64,000 nt of DNA, taken from contig AP024679.1 of the NCBI GenBank assembly GCA_025999215.1, forward strand, positions 293,645 to 357,644, given 5' to 3'. Under the pieces are notes generated by a model. It had not been told where the DNA came from. It saw nothing but the letters and a program-made list of their open reading frames with translations, and searched no databases. Of this stretch, positions 3,743 through 59,507 are shown piece after piece. A program made the translations under genes and the position numbers. The first letter of the stretch is position 1. Each line of letters opens with the position of its first letter. The stretch is from Candidatus Dojkabacteria bacterium. Lineage in GTDB: Bacteria > Patescibacteriota > Dojkabacteria > J137.

Positions 3743-4824
3743 ATGAATAACTTGGATCCAAATCAAGAGATTAAAACTCTGTTTGAAAAAATTAACTCTA
3801 GTAAACTTCCCGCTGATCTCAAAGAAAGAGCTTTTGGGCAACTTGCGCGATTAGAAAAAATGCTTACTACTGGCGAGTATTCTCGCGATTTTGAGCCAAT
3901 TACAGAGTATCTAAACTGGATTTTGAAAATTCCTTGGGAAAATTTTGTTAAAGATAATCTTGATTTAGAAAATGTAAGAGCATCGCTTACTAAAAACCAT
4001 TATGGCTTGGAGCCGGTTAAAAACAGAATTTTAGAATACCTGGCCATAATGCACTTGCGACAAAAAAGATTGAGAAAGTCAAATGTCGGAAAATAAAGAT
4101 AAAATGGTTGCTCAAAGAAGCAGTAGCGAGAGCGCCCCGATTCTTTGTTTTGTGGGTATTCAAGGTGTGGGTAAAACATCTATGGCTAAATCTATTGCTG
4201 AGGCTTTAGGTCGGCCTTTTGTACGAATAGCGCTCGGAGGAATTAACTCTTCAACTGAGTTAAGAGGCATTTCTCGCGGAGAGGTGGGCGCTGAGCCTGG
4301 TCAAATAATTAAAGCTTTGGTTAGAACCCAAGTAATGAATCCGCTGATTTTATTTGATGAAATTGATAAAGTTAATAGTCAAACGGGTTTGCAGAGCTGA
4401 TGTGATGGCATCGCTTCTTGAAATACTTGATCCACAACAGAACGCTAGTTTTGTTGATAGGTATATTGATTACCCTGTAGATCTTTCACAGACTTTTTTT
4501 ATTACTACAGCGAATAATTTGGGAGGGATTAGTGCTGCTTTGCTTGATAGGTTAGAAATTATCAGGTTTGGTAGTTACAGTGATGAAGAAAAAATAGTAA
4601 TAGCCAAAGATTATCTACTTAAAAAAGTGATCAAAAACGCAGGGTTAAGAGAAGATCAGTTGAGGTTTGCGGATGATGTTTGGCCGCTGGTGGTGAGGCC
4701 TCTAGGTTTTGATGCCGGTGTTAGGCAGCTAGAAAGAACGCTGTCTGAGTTGGCAAGAAAGGTGGCTCTTCAAATCGTTCAGGGAGTAACTAGACGGGGT
4801 AGTAATAACCAAGGAAAATTTTAG
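3743..4824 (+). pseudogene. lon: Lon protease remnant: AAA+ module only, split over three frames, lacking the N-terminal LON domain and the C-terminal Ser-Lys protease domain
   Basis: The three track ORFs 3743-4096, 4083-4400 and 4354-4824 align consecutively to Lon: ...HYGLEPVKNRILEYLA / [35 protein letters not shown]...LFDEIDKV / ...SLLEILDPQQNASFVDRYIDYPVDLSQTFFITTANNL...LLDRLEII. Frameshifts are near 4085 and 4390. Translation ends before any protease domain. Confidence 0.75.
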
Positions 4825-11083: not shown

Positions 11084-11401
11084 ATGCTAGACATATTCTT
11101 AAAACCTTTTTATTGGTGGTATGCGGTTATTGTGAGAAGTTACTTTATTTATCTTTTTTTAAACTATAGTTTTTACTTAAATAAAACCGACACCATACCA
11201 ATGTTCAAAAATATTTTCGTGCCTTTGTTTGGAAGAAAGGGGATAACTAACAGAATTATTAGCCTATTTTTACGTTTTTGGTGGGTCGTGTTTGGTTTTA
11301 CATTTTCTACAGTTTTGATAATTCCAATGTTTTTGTTTGGAATTTTGTTGTTGATACTGCCATTTTTACCTATTATTCAAACTTATAGAATTGTAACATG
11401 A
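11084..11401 (+). CDS. Small polytopic membrane protein (hypothetical)
   Basis: Hydrophobic 105-aa ORF whose end overlaps the start of the next gene (ATGA). Confidence 0.35.
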   Translation: MLDIFLKPFYWWYAVIVRSYFIYLFLNYSFYLNKTDTIPMFKNIFVPLFGRKGITNRIISLFLRFWWVVFGFTFSTVLIIPMFLFGILLLILPFLPIIQTYRIVT

Positions 11402-13975
11402 ATGAAATGCTTGAAATTACAACGTCAAACAATACAAAAATTATTTTAAACCTTGAAGATTTATTTAAATTTAGAGGTGAGCGAAAAAATCGTGATTATT
11501 TTGATAAAAGGTTAGGTTCTTTGTTGTTTATATTGGGAATTATTTTGTTAGTAATTCCATACTTTTGGCTAATTTATAATAGTCGTTTTTCTTTTAAAGA
11601 ATTATGGAATCCTACTGAACCAGGCCTAATAATTTCAAATATTTCAATTTTTTTGATAATTTATGGATTGTATTTAAAAAGAGATAAAAAAGTTTTTGAT
11701 TCGAGTTTGCACCTTGAAGACCTTTCAGACTTACGAAAAAAAATTAAAAATAATGCTCAAAAAGTCTACGAATTAGAAAATGCCTTTAGTGTAGAGGTTT
11801 TACAAATTTTGGATGAAGTTTATGCCAAACACAAAGACTTTTTTTTAGTAGCGTTGTCTGATTACATGGTAAGTGTCTCAAAAGAAAAAAAACTTTTAGA
11901 GAGTAGGTTGGGCTTAGATTTAAAAAGTTTAAAAAATGCTTTATTAGAACACTTTAAAACTAAAACTACTAGTTTTGAAGTGATGGCCGCAGAATTTTTT
12001 AGAGATTTATTAGATAAAGCTAATTTTATTGAAAGTGATTACATAGATGAAAAAATTCTTTTGGCAACTCTAATAGAAAAATATTGGAAGGAAGTTTTAA
12101 GAGAATTCGAAATAACAGAATTAGATATTAAAGGTTTTATTTTGTGGCTTAAAAATGAGCAGAAAAATTTAAATTATCAAAAAAAATGGAAGCGATTGTC
12201 AAAATTAAAACCCAAAGGCCCAATTAATAGAGCTTACACCTCTCGTGCAACCCCAATGCTTGATGAGTTTGGGTACAACTTAACTGCTCGAATTATTGAT
12301 AGAGGCTTTAGTATTTCTATAGGCAGAGAAAATGAAATTAATACTCTTTTACAGACTTTGGAGCAAGAATCAAGCGCTGCAGCGATAATTATTGGTGAGC
12401 CAGGTGTAGGAAAAACTCACTTTTTAGAGTATCTAGCAACAAGAATGATAATTGAAGATGTTCCGAAAGAGCTTAGAGATTCAAGGCTTGTGGTTGTAGA
12501 TTTAAATAAGGTATTTGCTAAAGCGGGATCAATTGATCACTTTAAGCAGATTTTACAACAAATTTTAGAGGAGGTTGTGGAATCTAAAAGTTTAATTATT
12601 GCTTTTGAAGATTTTTCACAAATTCTCTCAATCCGAACTGAAGGAAGAATGGAAATTATTAATTTGGTTATGAATATGATTACTAGATATAATATTAAAA
12701 CCATAACCACCACAACTCTTTCAGATTATTACAAGTATGTTAAACCTATAAAAACATTGGCTGCTCTTTTTACGCCAATAAACCTAAACGAGCCAAGTAA
12801 AGAAGTTACTCTACAGATTTTATTAGATGAAGTTAAGCAACTTGAGAAAAAACATAATTTAACAATTCAAGTATCAGCCGTTAAGAGAATCGTGGAGTTT
12901 GGCAACGAATTTGATTTTGAAAGAGTAATGCCTGATAAGGGTAACAGGCTACTTGAGGAGGCAGTGATAAGGGCAGAACAAAATAATTTTAAAGTGATTG
13001 ATGAAGATTTAATTGATGAGCTTTTGTCTGAAAAAATCGGAGTTAATGTTGGAGAGATACGACAAGATGAAGCGATTAAGCTTAGAAACCTTGAAGAAGA
13101 AATGCACAAAAGAGTTGTTGGACAAGAAAATGCGATATCAGCAGTTGCTAGTGCGCTTAGAAGAGCTAGAGCAGGGATTATTAGTTCAAATCGTCCCAGT
13201 TGCTTCATTTTTATTCTTTGGTCCCACAGGAGTTGGAAAAACTGAAGTTGCTAAAACACTAGCAAGTACTTACTTTGGAGATGAAAAAAATATGATTAGG
13301 TTAGACATGTCTGAATATCAAGAGGAAAAAAATCTGGATAGGCTAATTGGGTATGCTGATGATTCAGGAGAATTTATTGGTGGATATCTTGTTGATTCTG
13401 TTAGGCAAAAACCTTTTTCGTTAGTCTTGTTGGATGAGATTGAAAAAGCAAATTCAAAAGTTTTAGATTTATTTTTGCAAGTTTTAGATGAAGGTTTTAT
13501 AACTGATGGGTTAGGTAGAAAAATTGATTTTACAAACACGATTATTATTGCTACCAGCAATGTTGCTTCAAAGGAAATAACTGTAATGTTTGAGCAAGGG
13601 CAGAAATATATTGATGTTTTAAATAAAATAACTCCACTTTTGAAAAATTATTTTAGGGTTGAGTTTATTAATCGTTTTGATAAAGTCATTATGTTTAGAC
13701 CGTTGAATTTTGTAGATATTGAGCAAATAGCGAATTTAATTCTGATGAAACTGAGAGATAGGTTACTTGCTCAAGGAATAGATTTAAAATGGGATAAAAA
13801 TACTCTTTTTAAATTAGCTGAAAAAGGTTATAGTAGAGTGTACGGTGCGCGAGAGCTAAGAAGAGTTATACAAGAAACTATTGAAGATGATATTGCAACT
13901 GCTATAATTGAGAAAAAGTTGAAAAGCGGTAATACAGCTGTTTTAAGCGGTTTAGATATTATTTACATTACTTAA
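11398..13975 (+). pseudogene. Divergent, membrane-anchored Clp/Hsp100-like double-AAA+ ATPase (ClpA-like, no M-domain, Clp N-domain replaced by 2 TM helices) with one frameshift between D1 and D2
   Basis: D1 Walker A GEPGVGKTH with degenerate Walker B (IIAFEDF). Linker ...MHKRVVGQENAISAVASALRRARAGIISSNRP. D2 continues in the overlapping frame (track ORF 13013-13975): SFLFFGPTGVGKTEVAK...LVLLDEIEKA...sensor-2 GARELRR. Frame switch near 13195-13205 at a CCC run. N-terminus has two predicted TM helices (residues ~40-95). Confidence 0.7.
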
Positions 13976-14335
13976 ATGAAAAAAATTATTTTTATAACAA
14001 TTTTTTACACAAGCGTTTTTTTAGATAGGGTTAATGCGCAAGAATTTTCTTACAGTATTCCTAGCCCTACAAGGTATCAAAGTTTGGAGGATGTAGTTTC
14101 TGCATTAGGAAATTTAATTCAGCCAATATTTATATTAACCTTTTTGGCAATGGTTTTGTATGGGGCATGGGTTAGGCTTACATCGCAAGGAAATGCTGAC
14201 AAATTAGCAACAAGTAGAAAAATAATCATTGCTGCAATAGTGGGTTTTACCTTGGCGGTTTTAGCTCCATCAATAGTAAATATTGTAACAGGTTTACTTG
14301 GAGTAACTGGTTTAGAAACTTTACAAACAAATTAA
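13976..14335 (+). CDS. Secreted small two-TM protein, VirB2/TrbC-like pilin family (paralog 1)
   Basis: Signal peptide ending VNA-QE, then a TM - charged loop - TM hairpin (ILTFLAMVLYGAWVRLTSQGNADKLATSRKIIIAAIVGFTLAVLAP). Topology and size match conjugative-pilin-type proteins. Homology is not proven. Confidence 0.45.
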   Translation: MKKIIFITIFYTSVFLDRVNAQEFSYSIPSPTRYQSLEDVVSALGNLIQPIFILTFLAMVLYGAWVRLTSQGNADKLATSRKIIIAAIVGFTLAVLAPSIVNIVTGLLGVTGLETLQTN

Positions 14336-14338
14336 AAT

Positions 14339-14950
14339 ATGAAGGCTTTATTGTTTGTTTTAAATATATTTTTTTTAATCTCAATAATTTTTGGATCTGT
14401 AGTTTATGCACAAGGTTATCCAGGACCTAATACTAATGATCCAAACTATAGTCGTATAGGGTCCGCTCCTGAAAATTGTAGTGACAACTACGTGGTAGAT
14501 TTTAGTTGTCAAAGAGCAAAAATTTTAGATCCTTCAGTTTTTTGTTATGAAAACAAATGCCCAGATGTTCCTTCTTATCAAGATGCTCAGCAAGGTAGCG
14601 ATGATACTTGGTTAAGTTTAGATGCTTTTGGGGCTAGATTAAATATTGATTCTGGAAAAGAGATTGCCGCACTAATTAATATTTCCATATCTACTTTTTT
14701 GGGAATTATATCTATTTATGCATTGGTTAGAGGTGTGTATGTTGCTGGCTTTAAAATAGCAGGTAATACAGAACAAGAAAAGCTTACAGAAGCAAGGAAT
14801 GAAATTGTGCAACTAGTTTTGGCGTTTGTAATTGCTTGGTCGGCAATTTTTGTATTGCAGTTTGTATTCTCTTTGCTTGGATTAGGTAGTATTAATAACT
14901 ATATTTTATTTGGAGATAACCAACAAGGAACTCAAATAGTTATAAATTAA
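14339..14950 (+). CDS. VirB2/TrbC-like pilin-family paralog 2 with Cys-rich ectodomain
   Basis: Signal peptide (VYA-QG), an ectodomain of about 100 aa with 6 Cys, then the TM-loop-TM module with the shared 'EQEK' loop signature (KIAGNTEQEKLTEARNEI). Confidence 0.45.
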   Translation: MKALLFVLNIFFLISIIFGSVVYAQGYPGPNTNDPNYSRIGSAPENCSDNYVVDFSCQRAKILDPSVFCYENKCPDVPSYQDAQQGSDDTWLSLDAFGARLNIDSGKEIAALINISISTFLGIISIYALVRGVYVAGFKIAGNTEQEKLTEARNEIVQLVLAFVIAWSAIFVLQFVFSLLGLGSINNYILFGDNQQGTQIVIN

Positions 14951-14953
14951 ATT

Positions 14954-15499
14954 ATGAAAACAAAAACTAAAATCTTATTGTTTTTAATTATGTTTTTTGT
15001 AATACCGCCATTAGTGAGCGCGCAGGATGGATCAGGCTCTTTGGAATTCAATACAGGTAAGGCTGGTGAAGGCTTAGACCCAATTACGATTTCTTTTTTC
15101 CCTCAAGTTACTCTTATTGATGCAGAGTATGCAAGCTTTTTAAGTTGGTTAAGTTTTATAGCTAACATAGCTATATTAGTTTTGGTGCTTTTTTGGCTTT
15201 ATAAAATTTTTTTTGCAGGGATAGAAGCTATGAGAGGTGGTGGTGAAGCTGAAAAATTGGTTGAATCTTGGAAAAAAGTTAGAGCGGTTTTGCTTGGAGT
15301 AACTATTTCTTTTTTGATACCAATAATACTTTCTATTGTAGGGACTTTTTTGGGTGTTGGTGCAATTTGGGAGTGGCCATTAGCTTTTAGAGAATGTAAA
15401 GATGATAGGTATGATTATTATTTTCAAGCTTTACAGGAGTGGAGTCAAACTACAAACGTTTCAGATCCTAAAGCTGAAGTTGATAGTATTTGTTTTTAA
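14954..15499 (+). CDS. VirB2/TrbC-like pilin-family paralog 3
   Basis: Signal peptide (VSA-QD) plus TM - IEAMRGGGEAEKLVESWKK - TM. Confidence 0.45.
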   Translation: MKTKTKILLFLIMFFVIPPLVSAQDGSGSLEFNTGKAGEGLDPITISFFPQVTLIDAEYASFLSWLSFIANIAILVLVLFWLYKIFFAGIEAMRGGGEAEKLVESWKKVRAVLLGVTISFLIPIILSIVGTFLGVGAIWEWPLAFRECKDDRYDYYFQALQEWSQTTNVSDPKAEVDSICF

Positions 15500-15507
15500 T
15501 AATTTAA

Positions 15508-15945
15508 ATGTATAGATTTTTTATTTTTGCAGCAATTATTTTATTGAGTTTTGGTTTTTTAAACATAGTTAAGGCTCAGGGCTTTTGTGATTTTTATCCA
15601 TGTGGTAATAATGATCCAAGTATTGATGACAGCACAGAAGATGATCTTTCAGTAACTTTTCGAACAGGTTTTCGATTAATAACATCGTTAATATTTACAG
15701 TTTTCATAGCATATGGTATATTTTTGATAATTAAGGCTACTTATATTATTATTAGAAGTGAAGGAGTTTCAGAAAAATACGAAAAAGGGTATAAGTTGAT
15801 AAAGGGGGTTTATGTTGGTGTAATTATGATATTTATAGGTTTGATAGGTTTATTGATTGTTGCTGTTTTTTTTGGTGGGGTAAGTATATTTAATGTTGAG
15901 CTAACTGAGCCAGAAGGGGTTGATACACCGTTATTTGAATTTTAG
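15508..15945 (+). CDS. VirB2/TrbC-like pilin-family paralog 4
   Basis: Signal peptide (VKA-QG), short Cys-containing ectodomain, then TM - IRSEGVSEKYEKGYK - TM. Confidence 0.45.
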   Translation: MYRFFIFAAIILLSFGFLNIVKAQGFCDFYPCGNNDPSIDDSTEDDLSVTFRTGFRLITSLIFTVFIAYGIFLIIKATYIIIRSEGVSEKYEKGYKLIKGVYVGVIMIFIGLIGLLIVAVFFGGVSIFNVELTEPEGVDTPLFEF

Positions 15946-15971
15946 ACTTTTATTATTTATTAGTTGTCAAA

Positions 15972-16512
15972 TTGAAAAAAATATCTAATTTTACATTAGG
16001 GGTATTTGTTTTTTTGATTATTGCGTTTTTTTTAGTAACTGTTAATGTTGATGCACAGGGTAGTTCCCAAGATCTTCCTGATGATACGAATGCTACAACT
16101 ACTAATGATGAAAGTTTGGTTTGTCAAGTACTTCCATTTTTAAAGAATATAGCATTTGTTAATAAGGCTATATATGAGGGTAGTGAATAAGGTGCAGAAA
16201 ATGCCGTTAACACCATAGTAGGCTTGGTTCAACTAGGAGGAACTTTGGTGTTTGTAGGTATAATAGGAATATCAATTTATGTGATCATAAAGGCGGCAAT
16301 AAAGTATATAAGAAGCGAAGGAGAAGGAGAAGGTGGTTGAAGCGCAAAAGGCAATAAAGCAGGTGTTTGCAGGTTTAGCGGCGTTATTTGTAGGGTTGGT
16401 AGGTTTAGTAATAATACTTGCATTAATAAATACTGATGGTACTTTGGGTGGTTCTACTGAGCAGAATAGTGATTTAATAAAACAGCTAGAACAATTAAAT
16501 TTAGGGGAGTAG
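15972..16512 (+). pseudogene. VirB2/TrbC-like pilin-family paralog 5, inactivated. This is the first, diverged unit of the 647-bp tandem repeat.
   Basis: In-frame TAA at 16188-16190 where the intact copies have AAA. A 2-nt deletion near 16320 (GAAGGAGAA-GGAGAAGG versus GAAGGAGAACAGGAGAAGG) shifts the frame into TGA. From 16191 onward the nucleotide sequence is near-identical to 16838-17159. Confidence 0.7.
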
Positions 16513-16572
16513 TTTGTTAATTTAGAATTTAGATATTTAAAAATAAATTTTTTATCGGATTTACAAAGAATT

Positions 16573-16602
16573 TTGACATTTTTTGAGCTGTTTGTGTATA
16601 AT
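16573..16602 (+). promoter_or_regulatory. Consensus sigma-70-type promoter inside the repeat unit
   Basis: TTGACA - 18 nt - TATAAT, about 35 nt upstream of the 16638 ATG. An identical copy sits at 17220-17249 upstream of 17285. Confidence 0.55.
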
Positions 16603-16637
16603 TAATTGAACAAATTTATTAATTAGTTTAATTTAAA

Positions 16638-17159
16638 ATGAAAAAAATTATTAACAAGATTCACTCAACACTCATTATTTTAATGTTTGTTTTTTTATTA
16701 CATCCACTTCTTTTTTCAGTCTTAGTTGTTCGGGCTAGCGGTCAAAGTGATTTTTCTAATATTATATGTCAAGTACTTCCTTTTTTGAACAATATAGTAT
16801 TCGTTAAGGATGCTATATGTAAGGGTAATGAAAAAGGTGCAGAAAATGCCGTTAATACCATAGTAGGCTTGGTTCAACTAGGAGGAACTTTGGTGTTTGT
16901 AGGTATAATAGGAATATCAATTTATGTGATCATAAAGGCGGCAATAAAGTATATAAGAAGCGAAGGAGAACAGGAGAAGGTGGTTGAAGCGCAAAAGGCA
17001 ATAAAGCAGGTGTTTGCAGGTTTGGCGGCGTTATTTGTAGGGTTGGTAGGTTTAGTAATAATACTTGCATTAATAAATACTGATGGTACTTTGGGTGGTT
17101 CTACTGAGCAGAATAGTGATTTAATAAAACAGCTAGAACAATTAAATTTAGGGGAGTAG
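16638..17159 (+). CDS. VirB2/TrbC-like pilin-family paralog 6 (repeat copy A)
   Basis: Signal peptide (VRA-SG), Cys-containing ectodomain, then TM - IRSEGEQEKVVEAQKAIKQ - TM. 173 aa. Confidence 0.5.
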   Translation: MKKIINKIHSTLIILMFVFLLHPLLFSVLVVRASGQSDFSNIICQVLPFLNNIVFVKDAICKGNEKGAENAVNTIVGLVQLGGTLVFVGIIGISIYVIIKAAIKYIRSEGEQEKVVEAQKAIKQVFAGLAALFVGLVGLVIILALINTDGTLGGSTEQNSDLIKQLEQLNLGE

Positions 17160-17284
17160 TTTGTTAATTTAGAATTTAGATATTTAAAAATAAATTTTTT
17201 ATCGGATTTACAAAGAATTTTGACATTTTTTGAGCTGTTTGTGTATAATTAATTGAACAAATTTATTAATTAGTTTAATTTAAA

Positions 17285-17806
17285 ATGAAAAAAATTATTA
17301 ACAAGATTCACTCAACACTCATTATTTTAATGTTTGTTTTTTTATTACATCCACTTCTTTTTTCAGTCTTAGTTGTTCGGGCTAGCGGTCAAAGTGATTT
17401 TTCTAATATTATATGTCAAGTACTTCCTTTTTTGAACAATATAGTATTCGTTAAGGATGCTATATGTAAGGGTAATGAAAAAGGTGCAGAAAATGCCGTT
17501 AATACCATAGTAGGCTTGGTTCAACTAGGAGGAACTTTGGTGTTTGTAGGTATAATAGGAATATCAATTTATGTGATCATAAAGGCGGCAATAAAGTATA
17601 TAAGAAGCGAAGGAGAACAGGAGAAGGTGGTTGAAGCGCAAAAGGCAATAAAGCAGGTGTTTGCAGGTTTAGCGGCGTTATTTGTAGGGTTGGTAGGTTT
17701 AGTAATAATACTTGCATTAATAAATACTGATGGTACTTTGGGTGGTTCTACTGAACAGAATGATCAATTACAAAGATTAAGGGATTTAGATTTGGGAGAA
17801 CAATAA
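17285..17806 (+). CDS. VirB2/TrbC-like pilin-family paralog 7 (repeat copy B; identical to copy A except the C-terminal 15 aa)
   Basis: Nucleotide-identical to 16638-17115. C-terminus is NDQLQRLRDLDLGEQ versus NSDLIKQLEQLNLGE in copy A. Confidence 0.5.
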   Translation: MKKIINKIHSTLIILMFVFLLHPLLFSVLVVRASGQSDFSNIICQVLPFLNNIVFVKDAICKGNEKGAENAVNTIVGLVQLGGTLVFVGIIGISIYVIIKAAIKYIRSEGEQEKVVEAQKAIKQVFAGLAALFVGLVGLVIILALINTDGTLGGSTEQNDQLQRLRDLDLGEQ

Positions 17807-18010
17807 AGTTAGTTTTAGTAGGGAAGATAATTTTAAAATAGCTAAATTAATTTATTTCTTTTTTATTAGCCTAATTGGGTGTTGGGGATTTTTTGTTTAA
17901 ATTAGATGTAATTTTATTATTTAATTCTAGATTCAATCAGTGTTCTATCGTCTGAAACAATTACTTCAAATTTACTTGATAAAAGTTTCATTTCTTGGGA
18001 TACTTTTGGT

Positions 18011-18470
18011 ATGAAAAATTTACTTGTAGTGTTGCTTGTTTTTTTTGGGCTTGCTTTCTTTACACTCAGTGTAAATGCTCAAATGCAAGACATTCCCTTT
18101 TCTGCAAATGATTCATCGTGCAGTAGTTATCAGTGCTTCAATGGTGAGGATCCTGTTTATAATGAAAGTAAAAAGTTATGTATGTGTGGAGATGAGCCTG
18201 CATACTTCAAGCCACCCACACTTCAGCAAGTTGAGATATGGTTTGTTAGGATAGTTTATATCGTTTGGGCTTTTGTTGGGTCACTTTCTTTTGTAATGCT
18301 AGTTTATTTGGGATATCAATATATGCTCAAAGGAGGGAACAAGTGACCAAGCCTTGGTTGATTTAAGAAGGAGGATTATAAACTATATAATTGGGGTGGT
18401 ATTAGTGTTTTTGGCTGTTCCCGATATTAACGACTTTCTTTCGGTTTTTAAATATAAATGGAGATGTTAA
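18011..18470 (+). pseudogene. VirB2/TrbC-like pilin-family paralog 8 requiring a +1 frameshift (probably pseudogene)
   Basis: Signal peptide (VNA-QM), Cys-rich ectodomain and TM1, then ...LKGGNK-TGA at 18344. The +1 frame continues DQALVDLRRRIINYIIGVVLVFLAVPDI..., which recreates the charged loop plus TM2 seen in all paralogs. Confidence 0.55.
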
Positions 18471-18977
18471 GTGTTATGAGTTTGCAGAGTCTGGGGAATT
18501 GACATTTAGATTTTTCTTTCCAGAGCTTATGTACTGATCCTTTGAATGTTTTAGTTTCGGATCCTTGTACGTTTGGTGATGATGCTAGAGGGTTTGCTTG
18601 TGCTATAGAAGGAGCAAAGGTATCTGATTGCTCTGCAAGAAATTACAGAAGTATACAATATTTAGAGCTTATGTTTGTAGACAAGGTGTATCGAATTCTA
18701 TCGAGTTTAATGATAGTAACTAGTTTAACATCGATTTGAAACTAATAAGTTTGTTGTAGATGCACATACTGATTTTGTTATTTAATGTAAGTGTGAGATT
18801 AATATATTAGATTTTAAAGTTGTAAGATTATAAGAGATAGTATGTCTGAACGAATTTATAACTACAAACGATTTCAATTCTATTCCTGATTCGTTACAAG
18901 TAGATATTGCGGGAGAAGAAAATTCTTTTGATGTAATTACCAAAATAGAGTCTTCTGGTATAACAGTAACTAAAAAT

Positions 18978-19970
18978 GTGAAGAAATATATTTTGAAAAA
19001 GATAATTGATCGTCAAAATCAGTTACTAGATGAAAGAAAACCCTTAGATGGCGAATTTAATAAACTTAAAGATGAAAAGCAAGCTCTTGAAGGAAAGGAA
19101 CTTTTTGTATTATATTTACAAACTTTAAAAAATGATTTAGAAGATGTATTAAAAAAATATGAGATTAATGAAATTGACAAAACAAAAATTGAAAATTTAA
19201 AGCGTGAAAAACAGCATATGAGAACCAAATATCTTTTAGGTAAAGAAGATAATTTTTTTGCACAAGATAAAAATGAAGATAATGATGAAAAAAAGGATGA
19301 GCCATATTATTTTGTGGTTGGTTTAATGGTTTTGCAATCACTATTTGTTGTGTTTGCTTTATTGTATAAATTTAATTTGACGTTACTTTTAATTGGCGTG
19401 GTTTCATTTTTGATACAAATTTTATTTGCGTCACTTGCAAATAAAGTTGGATATTATGAAAATAATCTGTTATTTGAGTTGATTAATTATACTCATCCTG
19501 AAATAGATAAGCAGGAAGTGTTTGATAATTTTGATTATGAGGAGAGTATGCTTGTGAAGTTTGCAATGTATGAAACGATTAAGAATGAAATTAATAAGAT
19601 AGATGAATATAGTCAAGAATTTTTGAATGGGCAGACCTTAGATGAGTTTTCAAACAAAATAAAGCAAATAGTTGATAAAATGAGAGAAATTAATGAAAAG
19701 CTTATCGAAATTGAAAAAATTTCAATTAGTTCTGAAAAATTGAAAAAACTTAAACAAGAGCAATCTAGTTTGTCTGGCACAGGTTTGTTTGGGGATGTAT
19801 CATCTTCTGAAGGTGTTTTGAGTGATGCCGATAAAATCTCAATAGGAAGATTTTTGGTTGTTAATCATCAAAATGCTCTATCGGTTGAATTTGCCAGAGA
19901 GCAATTTAATATTTTACAAGAAGTCATTAGTGATAAAATACTTTATAGGACACAAGTTACACAAAACTAA
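18978..19970 (+). CDS. Hypothetical coiled-coil membrane protein (two central TM helices)
   Basis: K/E-rich helical N-region, TM pair (YYFVVGLMVLQSLFVVFALLY / LLLIGVVSFLIQILFASL), acidic C-region. Confidence 0.45.
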   Translation: MKKYILKKIIDRQNQLLDERKPLDGEFNKLKDEKQALEGKELFVLYLQTLKNDLEDVLKKYEINEIDKTKIENLKREKQHMRTKYLLGKEDNFFAQDKNEDNDEKKDEPYYFVVGLMVLQSLFVVFALLYKFNLTLLLIGVVSFLIQILFASLANKVGYYENNLLFELINYTHPEIDKQEVFDNFDYEESMLVKFAMYETIKNEINKIDEYSQEFLNGQTLDEFSNKIKQIVDKMREINEKLIEIEKISISSEKLKKLKQEQSSLSGTGLFGDVSSSEGVLSDADKISIGRFLVVNHQNALSVEFAREQFNILQEVISDKILYRTQVTQN

Positions 19971-20010
19971 TTTAGTCAAGATAGCTAACATAGCTAATCT
20001 AGTTATATTT

Positions 20011-21711
20011 ATGTTTGTGTTTGTTAATCCAGCATGGGCACGAAGTGTTGCTGATATCCAAAATGAAATAAATCAACAAGAACAAGAGTTAGAAAATGTA
20101 AAAGAAACATTGGAAAATGCGTTAAAGCAGCTCCAAGATACTGAGAGTAAATTGAATAATCAACAATCAGAATTAGAAAAATTAAATTCTGAAATAAGTT
20201 TAATTGATCAGCAAATAAACATTAATAATGTAGAGTTAGAGATTTTAAAAAAAGAAATAGAGGTTAAGCAACTTGAAAAAATCAAAAGAGAAAAAATTTT
20301 AGAAAAAACTCTATCTAAAAATTACATGGATTGGAGAGCTAAGGATACTCAAATAGAAAAATTTTTATTAAAAAATAACATTGATAATTCAGAGAAACAT
20401 TGGCAATATGATTCATTTTTTGTGAGTATTCAACAACAAGGTATAGTATCCCTTTTGGAGACATTGCAAGATCTCAAAAAATTATCTTCTGAGTATGATA
20501 AAAAAATAGAAGAGTTACAAGCTCAAAACAGTGAACTTGAAGCAAAAAAACAAAAATTACAAGAAGAGCTTTTGGCATTACAAAATGCGATTTATGCTAC
20601 AAACAACAACATAGTATCTTTACAAAGCCAGCAACAAAATATCGAAAGTAAAATTAAAAATCTTCTTGAGGAACAAAAACAAGCTTTTGAGTACGAACGA
20701 AAAATCTTAGAACAAGATCCTGGTGGAGGTGGTGGAAATATTAACGAGGGTGAGTGGTTTTTTTATGGAAGTGGAAGAGATTTGTATCAAGGACATGGTG
20801 TAGGTATGAGTCAATGGGGTGCTCACGGTATGGCATTAAATGGTTTTACATATGATCAAATACTTAGTTTTTATTATGAAAATTCATATGTGCAGGGCGG
20901 TTTTTCAAAGCAAATTAATGTTGATGGATATGGAAGCATGGATATTGAAACTTATGTATCAGGCTTAGGTGAAGTTCCTAGCAAAGCTTGTGGGAATCCT
21001 GATCAAGTTCAATCTAATCCGGAAAAATATGTGATAGATGATCCAAACAATAGTTGGGATTGCTGGCCTGAAGAAGCCATTAAAGCTCAGGTAGTAGCTG
21101 CTAGAACCTATGCATGGTGGTATACCAGTGTGAGAGGTAGCATTTGCACTACAGCATCATGTCAGGTTTACAGTGGAGGTAATGGAAAAGCCTGGGCAGC
21201 ACAAGAAACTCAAGGAGAGCTAGTTCTTTATAATGGTTCTCCTATTGAAGCCGTATATTCTTCAGATAACAATCAAGGTTATGGTACGGCAGACAACGAT
21301 ACTATTTGGCAAAACATTTATGGAGACGGCACACCTTATCCATATTTAAGATCAAAAAATGATAATGATTATGCAACACCTACTCAATGGACTAATTGGA
21401 CTTATCAAACCTCTGGTTTTTTGAGTCAAGATATTAACGCTATGCTTAATTTTGTAGTCAATAATTCTAATTATTCTATAGGCGTTAAAAATGCTATTAG
21501 TAATATAATTAACGAAGTTGGAGAAATTGAAAGTTTAAGTTTTGTTAGAGATAATTCTTTAAGAGTTAAAAAAGTTATCTTGAAAGGAACCAATGGTGTA
21601 GAAAAAAGTATTGGTGGATGGTGGTTTAAAAATATTTGGAATACTTGGGCTTATGAGACTGGTAGAGGAGATTATATATATTCTCAGACGTTCTTTTTAT
21701 CAAGTAAATAA
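20011..21711 (+). CDS. SpoIID/LytB-domain (peptidoglycan-remodelling) protein with long N-terminal coiled coil
   Basis: GHGVGMSQWGAHGMALNG matches the SpoIID/LytB core. It is preceded by about 200 aa of Q/E/L-rich heptads and a Gly5 linker. Track ORF starts at 19858, overlapping the upstream gene by 113 nt. The ATG at 20011 (MFVFVNPAWA) is more plausible, but the true start is uncertain. Confidence 0.6.
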   Translation: MFVFVNPAWARSVADIQNEINQQEQELENVKETLENALKQLQDTESKLNNQQSELEKLNSEISLIDQQININNVELEILKKEIEVKQLEKIKREKILEKTLSKNYMDWRAKDTQIEKFLLKNNIDNSEKHWQYDSFFVSIQQQGIVSLLETLQDLKKLSSEYDKKIEELQAQNSELEAKKQKLQEELLALQNAIYATNNNIVSLQSQQQNIESKIKNLLEEQKQAFEYERKILEQDPGGGGGNINEGEWFFYGSGRDLYQGHGVGMSQWGAHGMALNGFTYDQILSFYYENSYVQGGFSKQINVDGYGSMDIETYVSGLGEVPSKACGNPDQVQSNPEKYVIDDPNNSWDCWPEEAIKAQVVAARTYAWWYTSVRGSICTTASCQVYSGGNGKAWAAQETQGELVLYNGSPIEAVYSSDNNQGYGTADNDTIWQNIYGDGTPYPYLRSKNDNDYATPTQWTNWTYQTSGFLSQDINAMLNFVVNNSNYSIGVKNAISNIINEVGEIESLSFVRDNSLRVKKVILKGTNGVEKSIGGWWFKNIWNTWAYETGRGDYIYSQTFFLSSK

Positions 21712-21749
21712 TTTACTTATACTTCTTTTTGTGCGATAATTTTCATTAA

Positions 21750-22547
21750 ATGAATAATAATTACAATAGTTCACCTAATTATTCTAATCCCAATCCTAAT
21801 ATGGTTCCTAATAGTGAGGGTATAGTTCCAGCTCCCATGCCGGTGCCAAATTATGGTTTTGAACCAAATCAACCGGCAGTCCCTATGGATCACTATGAAT
21901 ATCAAAAAAGATTGAGGGATATTAATTTACAAAGAGAAATTAGCGAAATAGAAAGAATTATACCAAGAAAGAAAAACTCCTCTTTTTCAAGTCTTGAGTT
22001 TAGACCCAAGCATGTTCATTTTGCAACTCAAAATCCCCAGGAAAAGGTTTATCTTTTAATAAGAAGGCATTGGATTACAAATTTAGGTTGGTTTTTGAGA
22101 TATACATTTTTGGCTTTTGTACCTCCTACTATATTTTTTATACTTAAATTTTTCGAGATAGAAACTGATCTGGTGACTCCGAGAGGGATTTTTTTATTTT
22201 TATTAGGTTTTTATTCTTTGATTATTACTAATTTTTTCTCACATTTTTTTGATTGGTATTTTGATCCATATATTTTAACTAACGAAAGAATAATAGGATA
22301 TGATTTTAAGCCTTTTACTTCTTTTTCTGTAACTGAAGCAACACTTGATAACATTGAGGATGTTCAAGAAAAATCTATTGGCCCCATAGCGAGTCTATTT
22401 CATTATGGAAATATCAGACTTTTGACTGCGTCTGAAAAAGGTGAGATTGTTTTTGAAGCTGTACCAAACCCTACGGAAGTTAGAGATATCATAGCTGATG
22501 TGACTAAGATATACAAAAAGTATAATTTAAATCAACACAATGATTGA
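21750..22547 (+). CDS. Membrane protein with bacterial PH (bPH_2/YdbS-like) domain and N/P-rich N-terminus
   Basis: N/P-rich low-complexity N-terminus, TM hairpin, then the bPH2-like pattern ...IRRHWITNLGWF...ILTNERIIGYDF. Confidence 0.4.
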   Translation: MNNNYNSSPNYSNPNPNMVPNSEGIVPAPMPVPNYGFEPNQPAVPMDHYEYQKRLRDINLQREISEIERIIPRKKNSSFSSLEFRPKHVHFATQNPQEKVYLLIRRHWITNLGWFLRYTFLAFVPPTIFFILKFFEIETDLVTPRGIFLFLLGFYSLIITNFFSHFFDWYFDPYILTNERIIGYDFKPFTSFSVTEATLDNIEDVQEKSIGPIASLFHYGNIRLLTASEKGEIVFEAVPNPTEVRDIIADVTKIYKKYNLNQHND

Positions 22548-22752
22548 GCAAAGTTTAATAATAATAGACGCAATTAAAATAGCTGCTATTGTTTTTGCAG
22601 TTGGGCATTTTTTAGCGGGATTACTTTTATTTCGCGATATGATAAGAATAAATAAATCATTAAAAACCAAAAATTCTTCTTTTTTCAATTTGTTAAGTTT
22701 TATTTACTTACTGTTTCTCCTTTTTGTGTTAATCATATTTATTTTAGCTTAA
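22540..22752 (+). CDS. Small hydrophobic protein (hypothetical)
   Basis: 70 aa, two TM segments. Start overlaps the upstream stop (ATGATTGA). Confidence 0.3.
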   Translation: MIEQSLIIIDAIKIAAIVFAVGHFLAGLLLFRDMIRINKSLKTKNSSFFNLLSFIYLLFLLFVLIIFILA

Positions 22753-25183: not shown

Positions 25184-25637
25184 ATGAAAGTACTTTCAAC
25201 TAACAAACAAGCAAAACGAAATTATGAGTTTATAGAAAAGTTTGAAGCAGGAATAGTTTTAGAAGGCTGGGAGGTAAAATCAATCAAAGCAGGGTAGTGT
25301 ATCTATAGATGGTTCTTATGCTTATGTCAAAGAAAATGAAGTATTTGTTAAGAAGGTGAAAGTATATCCGTTAATGTCCGCGGGTAAAGTTCCTGAGGCT
25401 CAAACGGAACGCGATAGGAAGTTGCTACTTAAGAAAAATGAAATCAACAAAATTAAAACTTTACTGAAAAATATAGGTTATACTTTAGTTGTCAGTCAGT
25501 TGTTCCTTGCTAATTCGGGTTTTATCAAGGTTGAAGTGGTGGTTTCTAAAGGGCTCAAAAAATATGAAAAAAGAGAACGGAAAAAGGAGAAAGATTTAAA
25601 AAGAAAATTAGAAGCTGATAGAAAATATTATGGATAA
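25184..25637 (+). pseudogene. smpB: SsrA-binding protein SmpB, split by a 1-nt frameshift
   Basis: 25184-25297 encodes [40 protein letters not shown]. The +1 frame continues [66 protein letters not shown]... (track ORF 25356-25637). Both halves align to SmpB. The break is at a GGG run near 25292-25295. Confidence 0.75.
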
Positions 25638-26218: not shown

Positions 26219-28669
26219 TTGTATATGTTAGTTAAGATGGATATAATCAACACTGCTATTATAATTTTATATTTTATAATAGGAATACTTCTTGGAAGTA
26301 TTGTAGCTTACTTTTTGTTAAAATACGCGCTTAAGAAAACACATGAAGCAGTTTTGAGAAGAAAACATAGAAATTTGGTTTTCTTTGAAGTTAAATTACC
26401 TGCAAACAACGAGTTTGAGATAAAAGTGGCAGAGCAAATGTTTGCTGGTTTGATGAGTATTTCACCAAAAATTAAAGGAATAAAAAAATATTTTAATGCT
26501 AAGGCTTTCGTAAGTTTTGAGGTGGTAGCATTTAAAGATAATATTAAGTTTTATGTAGCTTGTCCAAAAAGAATAGCGGGAATAGTCGATAAGCAAATTA
26601 ATGGAACTTATACATCTGCTGATATTAAGCTGGTTAAAGAATATAATTTATTTCCTGACGATTCAAAAGTGGCTTACGCGGCTTTGAAACTAGATAAGCA
26701 TCATAGAATACCCATCAGAACTTATGAGGATTTGCCTGTAGATACATTGTCAACTTTGCTAGATGCGTTTAGTAAAATTCAGTTTAATGAAGCAGCGGCA
26801 TTTCAAGTTGTAATTACTCCAGCTGGTTCTGAATGGCGTAATCAATCTAAAAAATATATTAAAAAGCTTAGAGAGGTACCAGAAGGAGAAGATGGAAAAA
26901 CTAAGAAAAAACCTGAGCTTGATGATGATACTATTCAACTTATTGACCAAAAAGCATCGAAACCGGGTTTTTATGTAGATGTTAGGTTGGTTGCAGTTAG
27001 TGAAGATAAAGAGTCAGCCGAAATGCATTTGAGTAATATGATGAGTTCAATAGATCACTATGTAAAAGAAGGTGGAAACAGATTTAAGAAATTAGAAAAG
27101 AAAAAAATTAAAAATATAGTTGATGATTTCATCTATAGAATACCTAGAGAAACTATGATATTAAACACGGAAGAACTAGCTACTCTTTATCACTTCCCAA
27201 ACAAAAATATAACTACTCCTCATGTAAATTGGCTTTTATCTAAAAAAGCGCCAGCTCCGGATTTTGTAGAGGCTGAATTTAAAGAAGATTATATGTATAT
27301 TGGGAGAAATACTTTTAGGGGAAAAGAACGGGAGATTTTTATCAAACCAGAGGATAGGCTTAGGCATATGTACATAATCGGTCAAACTGGTACCGGAAAA
27401 TCAGGTTTTATGGTAGGTATGATGACAAGAGATATTAAGCTTGGACATGGTTGTGGTTTTATTGACCCTCATGGAAGTGATGCAGAAAAAATACTTCAAC
27501 AGGTTCCTCCTGATCGTGCTGATGATGTAGTATTTTTTGATCCATCAGATATGGAAAGGCCATTCGGTTTGAACATGCTTGAATATGAATCAGAAGGGCA
27601 GAAAGCAAAAGCTTTAGATGAATTATTGTCTATTTTTGATACTTTGTTTGATTTGAGGCAAACAGGAGGACCAATATTTTATCAATATTTTCGTTATGGA
27701 GTATTACTTTTATTATCAGATCCAGACTCAGGTGCGACAGTGTTAGAAGTTCCAAAGATCTTATCTGATGATGCTTATAGAAAGTACAAGCTATCTAGGT
27801 GTCCAGATAAAGAGATTGTTGCATTTTGGGAAAAACAAGCTGAAGCAGCGGGAGGAGAAGCCTCTCTAAAAAACTTGGTTCCTTATATTACTTCCAAATT
27901 ATCTCCATTTGTTACCAACCCTTATGTGCGACCAATTGTTGCACAACAAAAATCAACACTAGATTTTAAAGATATTATGGATAGTAAAAAAATTTTGATA
28001 GCCAAATTATCAAAAGGAAAGATTGGAGATTACAATGCTTATCTTTTAGGAATGATTTTAATTGGAAAATTGCTTGTTACTGCGTTGAGTAGAGAAGAAA
28101 AATCGGAAAGTGAGAGAGTTCCTTTTTACTTGTACATTGATGAGTTTCAAAATTTTTTGACGGAATCTATTCAAACAATTTTGTCGGAAGCTAGAAAGTA
28201 TAAATTGTCTCTCACTATTGCACACCAGTACATTAGTCAGTTGGTTAAAAATAACGATACTAGAATTAGAGATTCAATTTTTGGTAATGTTGGTAATAAG
28301 GCTGTTTTTAGAGTTGGTACCGAAGATGCAAAATTTTTGGAACATGAGTTTGAAGGTGTGTTTGATAAAAATGATTTAATTAAGGTTGAAAATTTCACTT
28401 TTTATTTGAAGATGTTATCTGGTGGACAACCCACACCACCTTTTTCAGTAAGATCTTTTTATGGTGACTCAAAATACGATATGATAGGTAAACCTAATCC
28501 TGAGTTAGCTCAGATAATCAAAGAAATATCGAGGCTAAAATACGGAAAGCCTAGAGAGCTGGTAGAGAAAGAAATAGAAATGAGGACAGAAGAGGCTCAT
28601 AAAAAGGGTGAAGAAATAATTAAGAAAAACAAATCTTCTTCAGGCTTCGGCGGTTTCGGTGGATTTTGA
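26219..28669 (+). CDS. VirD4/TrwB/TraD-like type IV coupling-protein-family ATPase with N-terminal TM anchor and 370-aa N-extension
   Basis: Walker A YIIGQTGTGKSGF. FIDPHGSD (compare TrwB IVDPNGD). Walker B LYIDEFQNF. Motif LTIAHQYISQL (compare T4CP/FtsK-HerA QSxSQL). One TM at residues 8-30. C-terminus is GFGGFGGF. Confidence 0.55.
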   Translation: MYMLVKMDIINTAIIILYFIIGILLGSIVAYFLLKYALKKTHEAVLRRKHRNLVFFEVKLPANNEFEIKVAEQMFAGLMSISPKIKGIKKYFNAKAFVSFEVVAFKDNIKFYVACPKRIAGIVDKQINGTYTSADIKLVKEYNLFPDDSKVAYAALKLDKHHRIPIRTYEDLPVDTLSTLLDAFSKIQFNEAAAFQVVITPAGSEWRNQSKKYIKKLREVPEGEDGKTKKKPELDDDTIQLIDQKASKPGFYVDVRLVAVSEDKESAEMHLSNMMSSIDHYVKEGGNRFKKLEKKKIKNIVDDFIYRIPRETMILNTEELATLYHFPNKNITTPHVNWLLSKKAPAPDFVEAEFKEDYMYIGRNTFRGKEREIFIKPEDRLRHMYIIGQTGTGKSGFMVGMMTRDIKLGHGCGFIDPHGSDAEKILQQVPPDRADDVVFFDPSDMERPFGLNMLEYESEGQKAKALDELLSIFDTLFDLRQTGGPIFYQYFRYGVLLLLSDPDSGATVLEVPKILSDDAYRKYKLSRCPDKEIVAFWEKQAEAAGGEASLKNLVPYITSKLSPFVTNPYVRPIVAQQKSTLDFKDIMDSKKILIAKLSKGKIGDYNAYLLGMILIGKLLVTALSREEKSESERVPFYLYIDEFQNFLTESIQTILSEARKYKLSLTIAHQYISQLVKNNDTRIRDSIFGNVGNKAVFRVGTEDAKFLEHEFEGVFDKNDLIKVENFTFYLKMLSGGQPTPPFSVRSFYGDSKYDMIGKPNPELAQIIKEISRLKYGKPRELVEKEIEMRTEEAHKKGEEIIKKNKSSSGFGGFGGF

Positions 28670-28716: not shown

Positions 28717-28793
28717 GCTCCTGTAGCTCAGTTGGTTAGAGCACGGTTCTTATAAAGCCGGGGTCAGTGGTTCGAGTCCACTCAGGAGTACCA
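28717..28793 (+). tRNA. tRNA-Ile (anticodon UAU), CCA encoded
   Basis: Cloverleaf: acceptor GCUCCUG/CAGGAGU; anticodon stem CGGUU/AGCCG with loop CUUAUAA (UAU); T-arm AGUGG-UUCGAGU-CCACU; 3' ACCA. Confidence 0.75.
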
Positions 28794-28796
28794 AAC

Positions 28797-29663
28797 CTAC
28801 ACTTCATAAATCTTATCTTTTCCTGAAGGTTTGTATTTCTTAGAAAGGAGTGATAAATATTTTTGAGTTGTGCTTTCTGATTTATGACCTACAATTTGAG
28901 CGAGGTAACTAGTAGAAACGCCTTGAGATAGTTGATGAACAATAAAGGTATTTCTGATATCGTTTACGCAGACGTTTTTCAAATTAGCTTTAGCTATAGC
29001 TCTATCAATTGAATTTCTAATATTTCTAATTTGAATAGGTTGACCAGTTCTGGTAAAAAATAAAGGATGGTTATTATCTTTATCGGCACAATGTTTTTCA
29101 AGATATGATTTTAATACGTAAAATAGCTTATCGTTGATCGGTATAACCCTCTTTTCATTTGATCCGTAAGGTTCTATAGTTATTTCTTTTTTAGACATAT
29201 CCACATCTTTAATTTTGAGGTTTGCAAGTTCAGCTATCCTGATTCCTGTTTGAAGCAATGTTTCAATTATTACAAATAATCTTTCATTTTGCCTACTAAC
29301 TTCTTTGAGTGCTAGATATTCTGTTGGTTTTAAAATTCTTTTTTTCTTGTTAATGTATTTAGGATGTTCCACTTCTAATGCAGGATTGTATTTTATTTTT
29401 TTTGTTGTTATTAAAAAATTAAAAAATGTTCTATAACTATTAAGTTTACGAGAAATTGTTTTAGGGGAAAGTCCTTTCTGTTCTTTTAAAAAAATCAAAG
29501 CATTTTTTATATCTTTGGTTTCAAATTGTGGTAAATCTTTTTGGACGTTTGTTTCTGCAAGTTGTTCGATATCTTTTTTATATGCAATAATGGTATTGGG
29601 AGACATTTTTTGTTTTTCTAAGTAGCTTGTGAAGCTTGCGACTAGTTCGTTAGTTGTATTCAT
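28797..29663 (-). CDS. Tyrosine recombinase (XerC/XerD/phage-integrase family)
   Basis: 288 aa with the C-terminal catalytic ...VGHKSESTTQKYLSL (H-x-x-R...Y) signature and the N-terminal core-binding motif (SPNTIIAYKKDIEQL). Its stop is 3 nt from the tRNA-Ile(UAU) 3' end. Confidence 0.75.
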   Translation of the reverse strand: MNTTNELVASFTSYLEKQKMSPNTIIAYKKDIEQLAETNVQKDLPQFETKDIKNALIFLKEQKGLSPKTISRKLNSYRTFFNFLITTKKIKYNPALEVEHPKYINKKKRILKPTEYLALKEVSRQNERLFVIIETLLQTGIRIAELANLKIKDVDMSKKEITIEPYGSNEKRVIPINDKLFYVLKSYLEKHCADKDNNHPLFFTRTGQPIQIRNIRNSIDRAIAKANLKNVCVNDIRNTFIVHQLSQGVSTSYLAQIVGHKSESTTQKYLSLLSKKYKPSGKDKIYEV

Positions 29664-30170: not shown

Positions 30171-30245
30171 CGCGGGGTAGAGCAGTGGCAGCTCGTCGGG
30201 CTCATAACCCGAAGGTCGTTGGTTCGAATCCAACCCCCGCAACCA
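30171..30245 (+). tRNA. Initiator tRNA-fMet (CAU), CCA encoded
   Basis: Near-identical to E. coli tRNA-fMet: CGCGGGG...GCUCGUCGGGCUCAUAACCCGAAGGUCG...CCCCCGCAACCA, including the C1xA72 mismatch and the three G-C pairs in the anticodon stem. Confidence 0.9.
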
Positions 30246-38204: not shown

Positions 38205-39700
<1,496 letters not shown>

Positions 39701-39946: not shown

Positions 39947-40084
39947 TTTAGAATTAGAAAAAATGTCAGTAATCAGCCATCAGGCTGATGATTGATATTT
40001 TGTAACGATCTTTAACAACTGAATAGAACGACATCATGATAAAAAAGGTTTTTTTGTCATGTGGGTAATTAAAATTACCAGAAA

Positions 40085-43088
<3,004 letters not shown>

Positions 43089-43237
43089 TGGTGAGCTTTG
43101 GTATATATTTTTGCCAAGATTCCACTCTTGGTAATGTTTATATACCAATTTTACCCTTGTTCGTTCTATTCAGTTTTTAGAGATTAAGTAATTTAAAAAT
43201 TCAATCACTAGGTGCAAGATTATTTAAGTAGTTTTGC

Positions 43238-43354
43238 ACCTGGTGATAGTATCGCCGTGGAAACACCTGATACCATCCCGAACTCAGAAGTGAAACACGG
43301 TTGAGCCGAAGATACTTGTCTGGCAACGGACTGGGAAAATAGGTAATCGCCAGG
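43238..43354 (+). rRNA. rrf: 5S ribosomal RNA
   Basis: ...CCAUCCCGAACUCAGAAGUGAAACAC... with a terminal helix CCUGGUGA/UCGCCAGG. Confidence 0.85.
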
Positions 43355-43356
43355 AT

Positions 43357-51195: not shown

Positions 51196-51257
51196 AATAA
51201 AATTGAGTTGATTTTTTTGTTGTGGTAAATTATTGGGTAATGATAGAATGAAATTAT

Positions 51258-59478: not shown

Positions 59479-59507
59479 TTGACAAAAAAAATATTATAGG
59501 GTATAAT
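59479..59507 (+). promoter_or_regulatory. Consensus sigma-70-type promoter of the rho leader
   Basis: TTGACA - 17 nt - TATAAT. Confidence 0.55.

Follow-up and report, generated by a model that had tools for sequence, protein, structure and literature searches.

A probable recent tandem duplication of a VirB2-like gene by unequal crossover within a conserved pilin-like gene cluster of a Dojkabacteria bacterium

Arrays of VirB2-like pilin genes are widespread in Patescibacteria and are essential in the one species in which they have been tested. A survey of Patescibacteria counted 441 VirB2 arrays of 2-11 genes in 383 assemblies, in which members of one array share 25% identity on average and 54% at most (Quinonero-Coronel et al. 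2025, PMC12102498). Southlakia epibionticum possesses six divergent VirB2-like pilins in a type IV secretion system (T4SS) locus required for epibiotic growth (PMC12857230, PMC11665869), the six-pilin cluster of strain ML1 being that of Wang et al. 2023 as summarised in PMC12857230. In the Trw system of Bartonella, tandem copies of trwL, a virB2 homolog, are described as varying in number between and within species, with recombination and concerted evolution (PMC2883598 citing Nystedt 2008; PMC11091102), and the same two sources present the trwL pilin genes as far quicker to diverge than the rest of the locus and as proposed determinants of host specificity (PMC2883598, PMC11091102). The present work concerns a tandemly repeated gene of this general kind in Candidatus Dojkabacteria bacterium KatS3mg085, located in a 64,000-nucleotide stretch of contig AP024679.1 (the window, to which all coordinates refer), where it occupies the fifth position of a conserved six-gene cluster of VirB2-like (PF18895) paralogs.

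The repeat at this position is probably a lineage-specific, very recent tandem duplication that arose by unequal crossover inside the conserved cluster. It comprises the following features:

16325-17618, + strand: recent duplication, a 647-bp segment present twice (alignment)
15972-16512, + strand: unit 0 (g0), an apparently disrupted paralog (reading, open reading frame (ORF) calls, alignment)
16513-16637, + strand: first copy of a 125-bp spacer, with TTGACA-N18-TATAAT at 16573-16602
16638-17159, + strand: copy A, an intact VirB2-like gene of 173 residues (ORF call, alignment)
17160-17284, + strand: second copy of the 125-bp spacer, with a promoter-like site at 17220-17249
17285-17806, + strand: copy B, an intact VirB2-like gene of 173 residues (ORF call, alignment)

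Alignment reveals an exact duplication in which the 647-bp segment 16325-16971 recurs head-to-tail as 16972-17618 with a single difference (16377 A / 17024 G), and this duplication is embedded in older, partial homology. The original prediction had described a triple tandem repeat of 647 bp and had called for an alignment of the region with itself. Read-through and alignment of 15600-18300 bear out three tandem units, with starts spaced 645 and 647 bp apart, and the rest of that description matches almost to the base, but the strict repeat is one 647-bp segment in two copies and not three equal units. Tandem Repeats Finder reported no repeat for the region because the longest period that it was allowed (500) is shorter than 647.

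Copies A and B are nearly identical, as had been predicted. Over 470 nt (16638-17107 against 17285-17754) they differ solely at 17024 G / 17671 A, a silent change between the leucine codons TTG and TTA, and a further silent difference (17108 G / 17755 A, GAG/GAA) occupies the first position of the diverged tail. From 17108/17755 onward, 20 of 49 aligned sites differ (Fisher p = 1e-21 for heterogeneity between core and tail), so that the two products, which share 95% protein identity, differ in their last ~16 residues alone and carry the C-termini given earlier, ...NSDLIKQLEQLNLGE in A and ...NDQLQRLRDLDLGEQ in B. The two 125-bp spacers are 100% identical. Copy B has its own tail, and its product is 100% identical to NCBI protein KatS3mg085_311; copy A is a chimera whose 5' region and core are those of B and whose tail, with the spacer after it, is that of unit 0. 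Head-to-tail, near-identical copies with a junction gene that is chimeric between the flanking paralogs mark the region as a tandem segmental duplication.

Unit 0, which begins with a TTG start codon, combines two levels of divergence, and both halves of its earlier description proved accurate. Its first 219 nt are ~63% identical to copy A (70 differences at 189 aligned sites), and its 3' part, taken as 16191-16637, departs from A by a 2-nt deletion and by two substitutions, C in place of T at 16211 and A in place of G at 16377. The step between these parts is sharp (Fisher p = 4e-39), and along the unit the identity rises from ~50% through 70-82% and 92% to 100%. At the single polymorphic site of the duplicated segment, unit 0 does carry A, the same base as copy B, from which the original prediction had deduced gene conversion between units. 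This argument fails because units 0 and B have A and the middle copy alone has G, a distribution for which one new mutation (or consensus error) in copy A suffices. Recombination between units is strongly supported on other grounds, namely the stepwise profile of identity, the chimeric make-up of copy A and a sister genome with the same layout.

A single unequal crossover would account for every identity relationship in each of these two genomes. The process would have started from two adjacent paralogs, g0 and gB, which had different signal peptides, N-termini and C-terminal tails and a common two-helix core. That core would already have been partly homogenised, since the identity gradient in g0 points to at least one earlier conversion affecting part of it. 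One unequal homologous crossover in the shared core, placed between 16325 and 16460, would then have duplicated 647 bp, creating a middle gene A that has its promoter, 5' region and core from B and its tail from g0, and copying the 125-bp spacer together with its sigma-70-like promoter. The outcome would be two separately promoted, near-identical genes whose isoforms differ in the putatively exposed C-terminal ~16 residues, accompanied by an upstream copy that is apparently disabled.

The sister genome KatS3mg086 (L004), which comes from the same sample and whose flanking genes share 73-99% protein identity with those of the window, contains three units at the same place (165, 170 and 176 aa as called), all of them intact, including R0, its counterpart of unit 0. 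The sister period is 517 bp, and the duplicated 517-bp segment again has one difference between its copies; RA and RB are the same over 427 nt without a difference before their tails diverge, and the last ~150 nt of R0 equal RA, its 5' part being diverged. The breakpoints lie elsewhere than in the window. Among more distant relatives, the position holds a single copy without repeats in three syntenic genomes or contigs (L005, L006 and L008) and two diverged copies in each of L002, L003 and L011. Copies and tails group by genome and not by position, with unit identities of 98-100% within a genome against 40-85% between genomes. The genome and metagenome collections scanned yielded distant relatives only and no contig of the same species, and the cluster to which the copy protein belongs has two members, both from one contig.

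Divergence at this position far exceeds that of its surroundings. Between window and sister, flanking genes have a synonymous divergence (dS) of 0.30-0.53 and a ratio of nonsynonymous to synonymous divergence (dN/dS) of 0.02-0.10. The duplicated gene, at ~50% protein identity, has a dS of 1.4-1.6, about four-fold above the flanks, and a dN of 0.38, and its hairpin core alone has a dS of ~1.9 and a dN of 0.17. This synonymous excess means that the two genomes lack simple orthologs at this position, which implies either allele replacement from other lineages or differential homogenisation to old paralogs. Simple sorting of paralogs, in which the core of the window copies would derive from the sister R0 type, was considered and rejected, since R0 resembles the core no more than RA does; the 5' regions of the two genomes, at 26-54% nucleotide identity, are too dissimilar for orthology to be assigned. 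Likeness within genomes, one, two or three copies among relatives, and a dS of 1.4-1.9 against 0.3-0.5 in the flanks form together the pattern of concerted evolution. Pilin-like gene 2 of the same cluster (14339-14950) likewise has a dS of 1.15 to its sister counterpart, with the excess concentrated in the signal peptide and N-terminal region.

The timing of the duplications can be judged from the same comparison. Duplicates differ at ~0.15-0.2% of sites, against a background dS of 0.3-0.5 between the genomes, so the duplication events are far younger than the split of the two lineages. Duplication was probably independent in each lineage, a history that is favoured over continuous homogenisation. 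The sister event, along with the one or two copies in other relatives, indicates that this pilin position is recombination-prone and fast-diverging.

The duplicated gene belongs to a run of small predicted membrane proteins bracketed by conserved neighbours, all on the same strand:

11398..13975, + strand: ClpB-like double-AAA+ ATPase, split; precedes the pilin cluster in every relative examined
13976-14335, + strand: pilin-like gene 1, 119 aa; above the PF18895 cut-off
14339-14950, + strand: pilin-like gene 2, 203 aa; signal peptide and two hydrophobic helices
14954-15499, + strand: pilin-like gene 3, 181 aa; signal peptide and two hydrophobic helices
15508-15945, + strand: pilin-like gene 4, 145 aa; signal peptide and two hydrophobic helices, profile match to the duplicated gene
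18011..18723, + strand: pilin-like gene 6, broken; ortholog of an intact 234-aa gene of the sister
19930..21711, + strand: SpoIID-domain protein, conserved downstream of the cluster; longest ORF from 19858

Assignment to a family rests on transitive sequence homology and on topology. A search of 5.8 billion proteins returned 57 homologs, mostly on Dojkabacteria-type contigs, 12 of which had already been annotated with PF18895 (T4SS_pilin, the VirB2-like pilins of bacteria of the candidate phyla radiation (CPR); curated cut-off 26.6 bits). When the 44 aligned homologs with E < 1e-20 to the query were scanned, 25 matched PF18895 at E <= 0.01 (best E = 6.8e-07). Within the array, gene 1 scores 28 bits to PF18895, and a profile of the duplicated gene finds gene 4 at E = 8e-22 and gene 3 at E = 1e-5; a direct hhalign comparison with gene 1 is weak (E = 0.0012, probability 19%). 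The homolog alignment displays, in order, a Sec-type signal peptide, two invariant cysteines around C-x3-PF, a first hydrophobic helix, a charged loop with the conserved pattern KYIRSEGD..K..EAQKAIK, a second hydrophobic helix and a variable tail. An AlphaFold2 (AF2) model with a mean predicted local distance difference test (pLDDT) score of 73.6 has a signal helix (2-27), short helices that bear the cysteines, a helical hairpin (65-107 and 112-148) and a C-terminal helix. A hydropathy scan agrees with it, giving a signal peptide and two hydrophobic helices, a pattern common to all array members. The duplicated gene is thus predicted to encode a VirB2-like, PF18895-related membrane protein with a putative pilin function.

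The original prediction had called the gene "pilin-like", a label that stands if it means a VirB2-like pilin of type IV secretion (PF18895) and not a type IV pilus pilin. The N-terminus, MKKIINKIHSTLIILMFVFLLHPLLFSVLVVRA followed by SGQ, is an ordinary Sec-type signal and no prepilin leader of the kind that ends in G before a hydrophobic F/M-T-L-x-E segment, and the copies match no type IV pilus pilin family in Pfam or NCBIfam. Variation in the protein falls in the signal peptide, in the mature N-terminus and in the C-terminal tail. In F-type and T-pilus structures, pilins of the VirB2/TraA type have exposed termini and a loop directed towards the lumen. By analogy, the variation observed here would sit on the outside of a putative filament.

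The spacer that was duplicated along with the gene contains a promoter-like sequence. TTGACA-N18-TATAAT had been attributed to every unit; the motif is perfect, but it occurs twice and not three times, in the spacers before A and B, with none upstream of unit 0 and none downstream of B. Three perfect sigma-70 consensus sequences occur in the window, against 0.12 expected, and this rarity supports, without proving, a promoter function, so that the spacer sites are predicted promoters for A and B. If so, two separately promoted genes would provide a higher subunit dosage as well as two tail isoforms. The sole other perfect consensus, TTGACA-N17-TATAAT at 59479-59507, lies 327 nt upstream of rho (59834). 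A Rfam scan of 15800-18100 found no RNA family, no terminator-like sites were found in 13.5-19.5 kb, and neither the rest of the window nor the relatives contain a homolog of the 125-bp spacer. The absence of a Shine-Dalgarno sequence at the copies is uninformative because genes of this genome generally lack such motifs.

Several results weigh against parts of the interpretation developed so far. As regards the family, copies A and B have no Pfam match and fail to match PF18895 even at E <= 1, while the NCBIfam Mbov_0395 pilin-like (conjugal transfer) model reaches them weakly (E = 0.008), far under its cut-off. Foldseek of the AF2 model against the PDB returned nothing at E <= 0.001, and a profile search of PDB sequences found nothing relevant; an archaeal conjugation pilin (8dfu) stands at rank 17 of the Foldseek list (E = 7), and no structure of a CPR VirB2-like filament was found by either PDB search. 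No VirB4 was recognised in the 64-kb window, where the sole T4SS-related protein found is a VirD4-like coupling protein (26219-28669), 8.4 kb downstream; the other large ORFs gave no family matches. As regards promotion, the sister units adjoin with 4-nt gaps and lack both spacer and promoter, and separate promotion is therefore not a conserved feature. As regards the sequence itself, the consensus is imperfect, with frameshifts in smpB, a Lon-like ATPase, the ClpB-like ATPase and the sixth pilin gene of the same window. Lastly, the identity relationships are also compatible with an older origin of the array, since a triplication ancestral to both sister genomes, its units kept alike by continuing gene conversion (concerted evolution), fits the same data.

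Such an ancestral triplication is possible, although doubtful. The three-unit topology at the same position in both genomes and the clustering of copies and tails by genome rather than by position are what it would produce, and the identity gradient of g0 already calls for at least one earlier conversion. It would nevertheless need several conversion tracts per lineage, all ending as if a single crossover had occurred, and one event per lineage explains more simply the one difference per unit and the unlike periods of 647 and 517 bp, with and without a spacer.

The apparent decay of some neighbouring genes raises a different question, namely whether the duplication is a neutral, transient event without functional meaning in a locus that is decaying in this genome. 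This view has some basis in the apparent disruption of g0, of the sixth pilin gene and of the ClpB-like ATPase next to the cluster, yet it is improbable: A and B are intact and have a perfect promoter consensus, dN/dS between window and sister is 0.10-0.29 for cluster genes 1-4, three intact units are kept in the sister, and frameshifts in smpB and the Lon-like gene, which lie elsewhere, point to consensus errors rather than to locus-specific decay.

Both lesions reported earlier are present in unit 0: TAA stands at 16188-16190, opposite the AAA of the other two copies, and 2 nt are deleted after 16324. Unit 0 is somewhat more likely a pseudogene than an intact gene, a status that is probable and not secure given the nearby frameshifts. 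The deletion converts GAAGGAGAACAGGAGAAGG (16310-16345) into a perfect hexamer repeat, GAAGGA GAAGGA GAAGG, a context that fits slippage or microhomology deletion better than it fits a homopolymer read error, and an A-to-T nonsense change is a less usual kind of error. Because several genes of the window carry frameshifts, however, the deletion is not to be taken at face value.

KatS3mg085 is a circular, finished genome assigned to c__Dojkabacteria, o__J137, with 31.4% GC (guanine plus cytosine) (Kato et al. 2022, supplement). Its chromosome of 862,240 bp, from an ultrasmall bacterium of a hot spring, is a metaFlye 2.8.3 assembly of PacBio HiFi reads whose N50 was 10.5 kb (Kato et al. 2022), at a coverage of ~10.8x if a value of 10.8 in a table of that paper is so read. 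In the window, smpB (25184-25637) falls into ORFs of 37 and 93 aa where a GGG run near 25291-25293 has one G too many, which is probably a HiFi/metaFlye consensus error; the tmRNA gene (1608-2064) is intact. The Lon-like AAA+ ATPase (AAA and Lon_lid domains, 3743-4824) consists of three overlapping ORFs in three frames, implying two frameshifts. A single A inserted at 13198, outside any homopolymer, breaks the ClpB-like ATPase, whose ortholog in the sister is intact at 858 aa. The sixth pilin-like gene contains 5-6 small indels in ~400 nt and is otherwise highly similar to the intact sister gene; it may be a genuine pseudogene, or else the consensus may be faulty at this place, for instance through sister-strain reads recruited in polishing.

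A dedicated cassette-type system of surface variation with a logic like that of pilE/pilS, in which a silent, promoterless g0 donates segments to expressed copies, is quite unlikely. It would make sense of a disabled g0 that lacks the promoter-like spacer, of the g0 tail carried by copy A and of a locus that is the most diverged part of the cluster. A programmed cassette is, however, hard to reconcile with a single candidate donor, with an intact g0 in a sister whose three genes adjoin with 4-nt gaps, and with the lack of G-quadruplex (G4) motifs and inverted repeats; the sole recombinase is 11 kb away, and the lesions of g0 may themselves be consensus errors. A mobile-cassette origin and G4-initiated conversion were also rejected, neither inverted repeats nor G4 motifs having been found. 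The least tenable explanation is an assembly artefact, an expanded or mis-joined repeat, for which a metaFlye consensus at ~10.8x with indel problems close by and a related strain in the same sample might speak, and which is very improbable because HiFi reads easily span an array of ~1.8 kb whose units are told apart by unique 5' and tail sequences, and because an independently assembled sister contig of different sequence has the same layout.

The surroundings of the array are themselves conserved. The Dojkabacteria cluster spans 11084-22752 and keeps the same order in L004, L005, L006 and L008. Upstream of the pilin run are, in order, Cpn10, Cpn60, a 105-aa gene and the ClpB-like ATPase, and downstream are a coiled-coil protein, the SpoIID-domain protein, a bPH-like membrane protein and a 70-aa protein, the last two being small membrane proteins. 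An AAA+ unfoldase-like ATPase is constantly paired with the pilin array, and no VirB4 is recognisable beside it. Further along, a tRNA-Ile gene (anticodon TAT) adjoins an opposite-strand tyrosine recombinase of the Phage_integrase family (28717-29663), and this pair is followed by two tRNA-Met(CAT) genes at 30171 and 30363. The window also contains an rRNA operon (16S 38205-39700, tRNA-Ile/Ala, 23S 40079-43092, 5S 43239-43355). Directly after it (43468-55325) come ORFs of 2575 and 1355 aa, the latter with DUF2341 and fibronectin-III domains, which are probably giant surface proteins.

The suggestion that such an architecture drives copy-number or antigenic variation is plausible on the sequence evidence, given relatives with one, two and three copies, recent duplication in both sister genomes and the hyper-divergence of the position. 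The hyper-divergent position points to the subunit likeliest to face a host, a phage or a partner. In a more speculative and rather improbable extension, the fifth position would help to determine host or partner recognition and would be kept hypervariable by recombination, a process in which termini are reshuffled on a constant hairpin core and alleles are exchanged between lineages. If this were true, unequal crossover and conversion would repeatedly recombine the exposed modules at both termini, some segments being recovered from disabled copies, whole-allele exchange between lineages would explain the ~four-fold synonymous excess over the genome background, and the locus would represent a simple surface-variation system in an episymbiotic CPR bacterium. 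Such a system would be largely invisible to short-read metagenome-assembled genomes because repeats of this kind collapse in them; the present locus is readable because it comes from HiFi assemblies.

Compared with the cassette system of Neisseria, the locus resembles pilE/pilS in having a disabled or partial copy beside expressed ones and variable exposed ends recombined onto a conserved core. It differs in that the Neisseria protein is a type IV pilus pilin of different fold and machinery, served by many silent cassettes, and in that conversion there is unidirectional and started at a G4 element, whereas no G4 was found here.

The closest parallels are the VirB2-like arrays themselves. The locus shares with Patescibacteria VirB2 arrays the tandem arrangement of small, PF18895-related proteins with a signal peptide and a two-helix hairpin, the chromosomal location in a CPR bacterium and the high divergence of the other paralogs, and with the S. 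epibionticum cluster its six positions. Unlike the surveyed arrays, in which identity reaches at most 54%, A and B share 95% protein identity and agree over 470 nt at all but the one silent site; both fall under the hidden Markov model thresholds of that survey and so would not have been counted there. Unlike other Patescibacteria arrays, moreover, this one has no recognised virB4 nearby and is bracketed by a ClpB-like ATPase and a SpoIID-like protein. The published survey saw old, highly diverged paralogs only, and what the present locus adds is one array position that is still duplicating, recombining and outpacing its neighbours in divergence.

With Bartonella trwL, the locus has in common the tandem amplification of a T4SS pilin gene, copy-number variants, concerted evolution and fast divergence. 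Bartonella is, by contrast, a diderm alphaproteobacterium with an R388-type mating-pair formation (MPF-T) system and 5-8 diverged copies under one operon; the genes described here are not homologous members of Trw, and an adhesion role is known for none of them. Because the same behaviour is already known for trwL in Bartonella, the observation is incremental rather than a new principle: the locus is a variant within a known class, the VirB2-like pilin arrays of Patescibacteria, that behaves like a trwL amplification.

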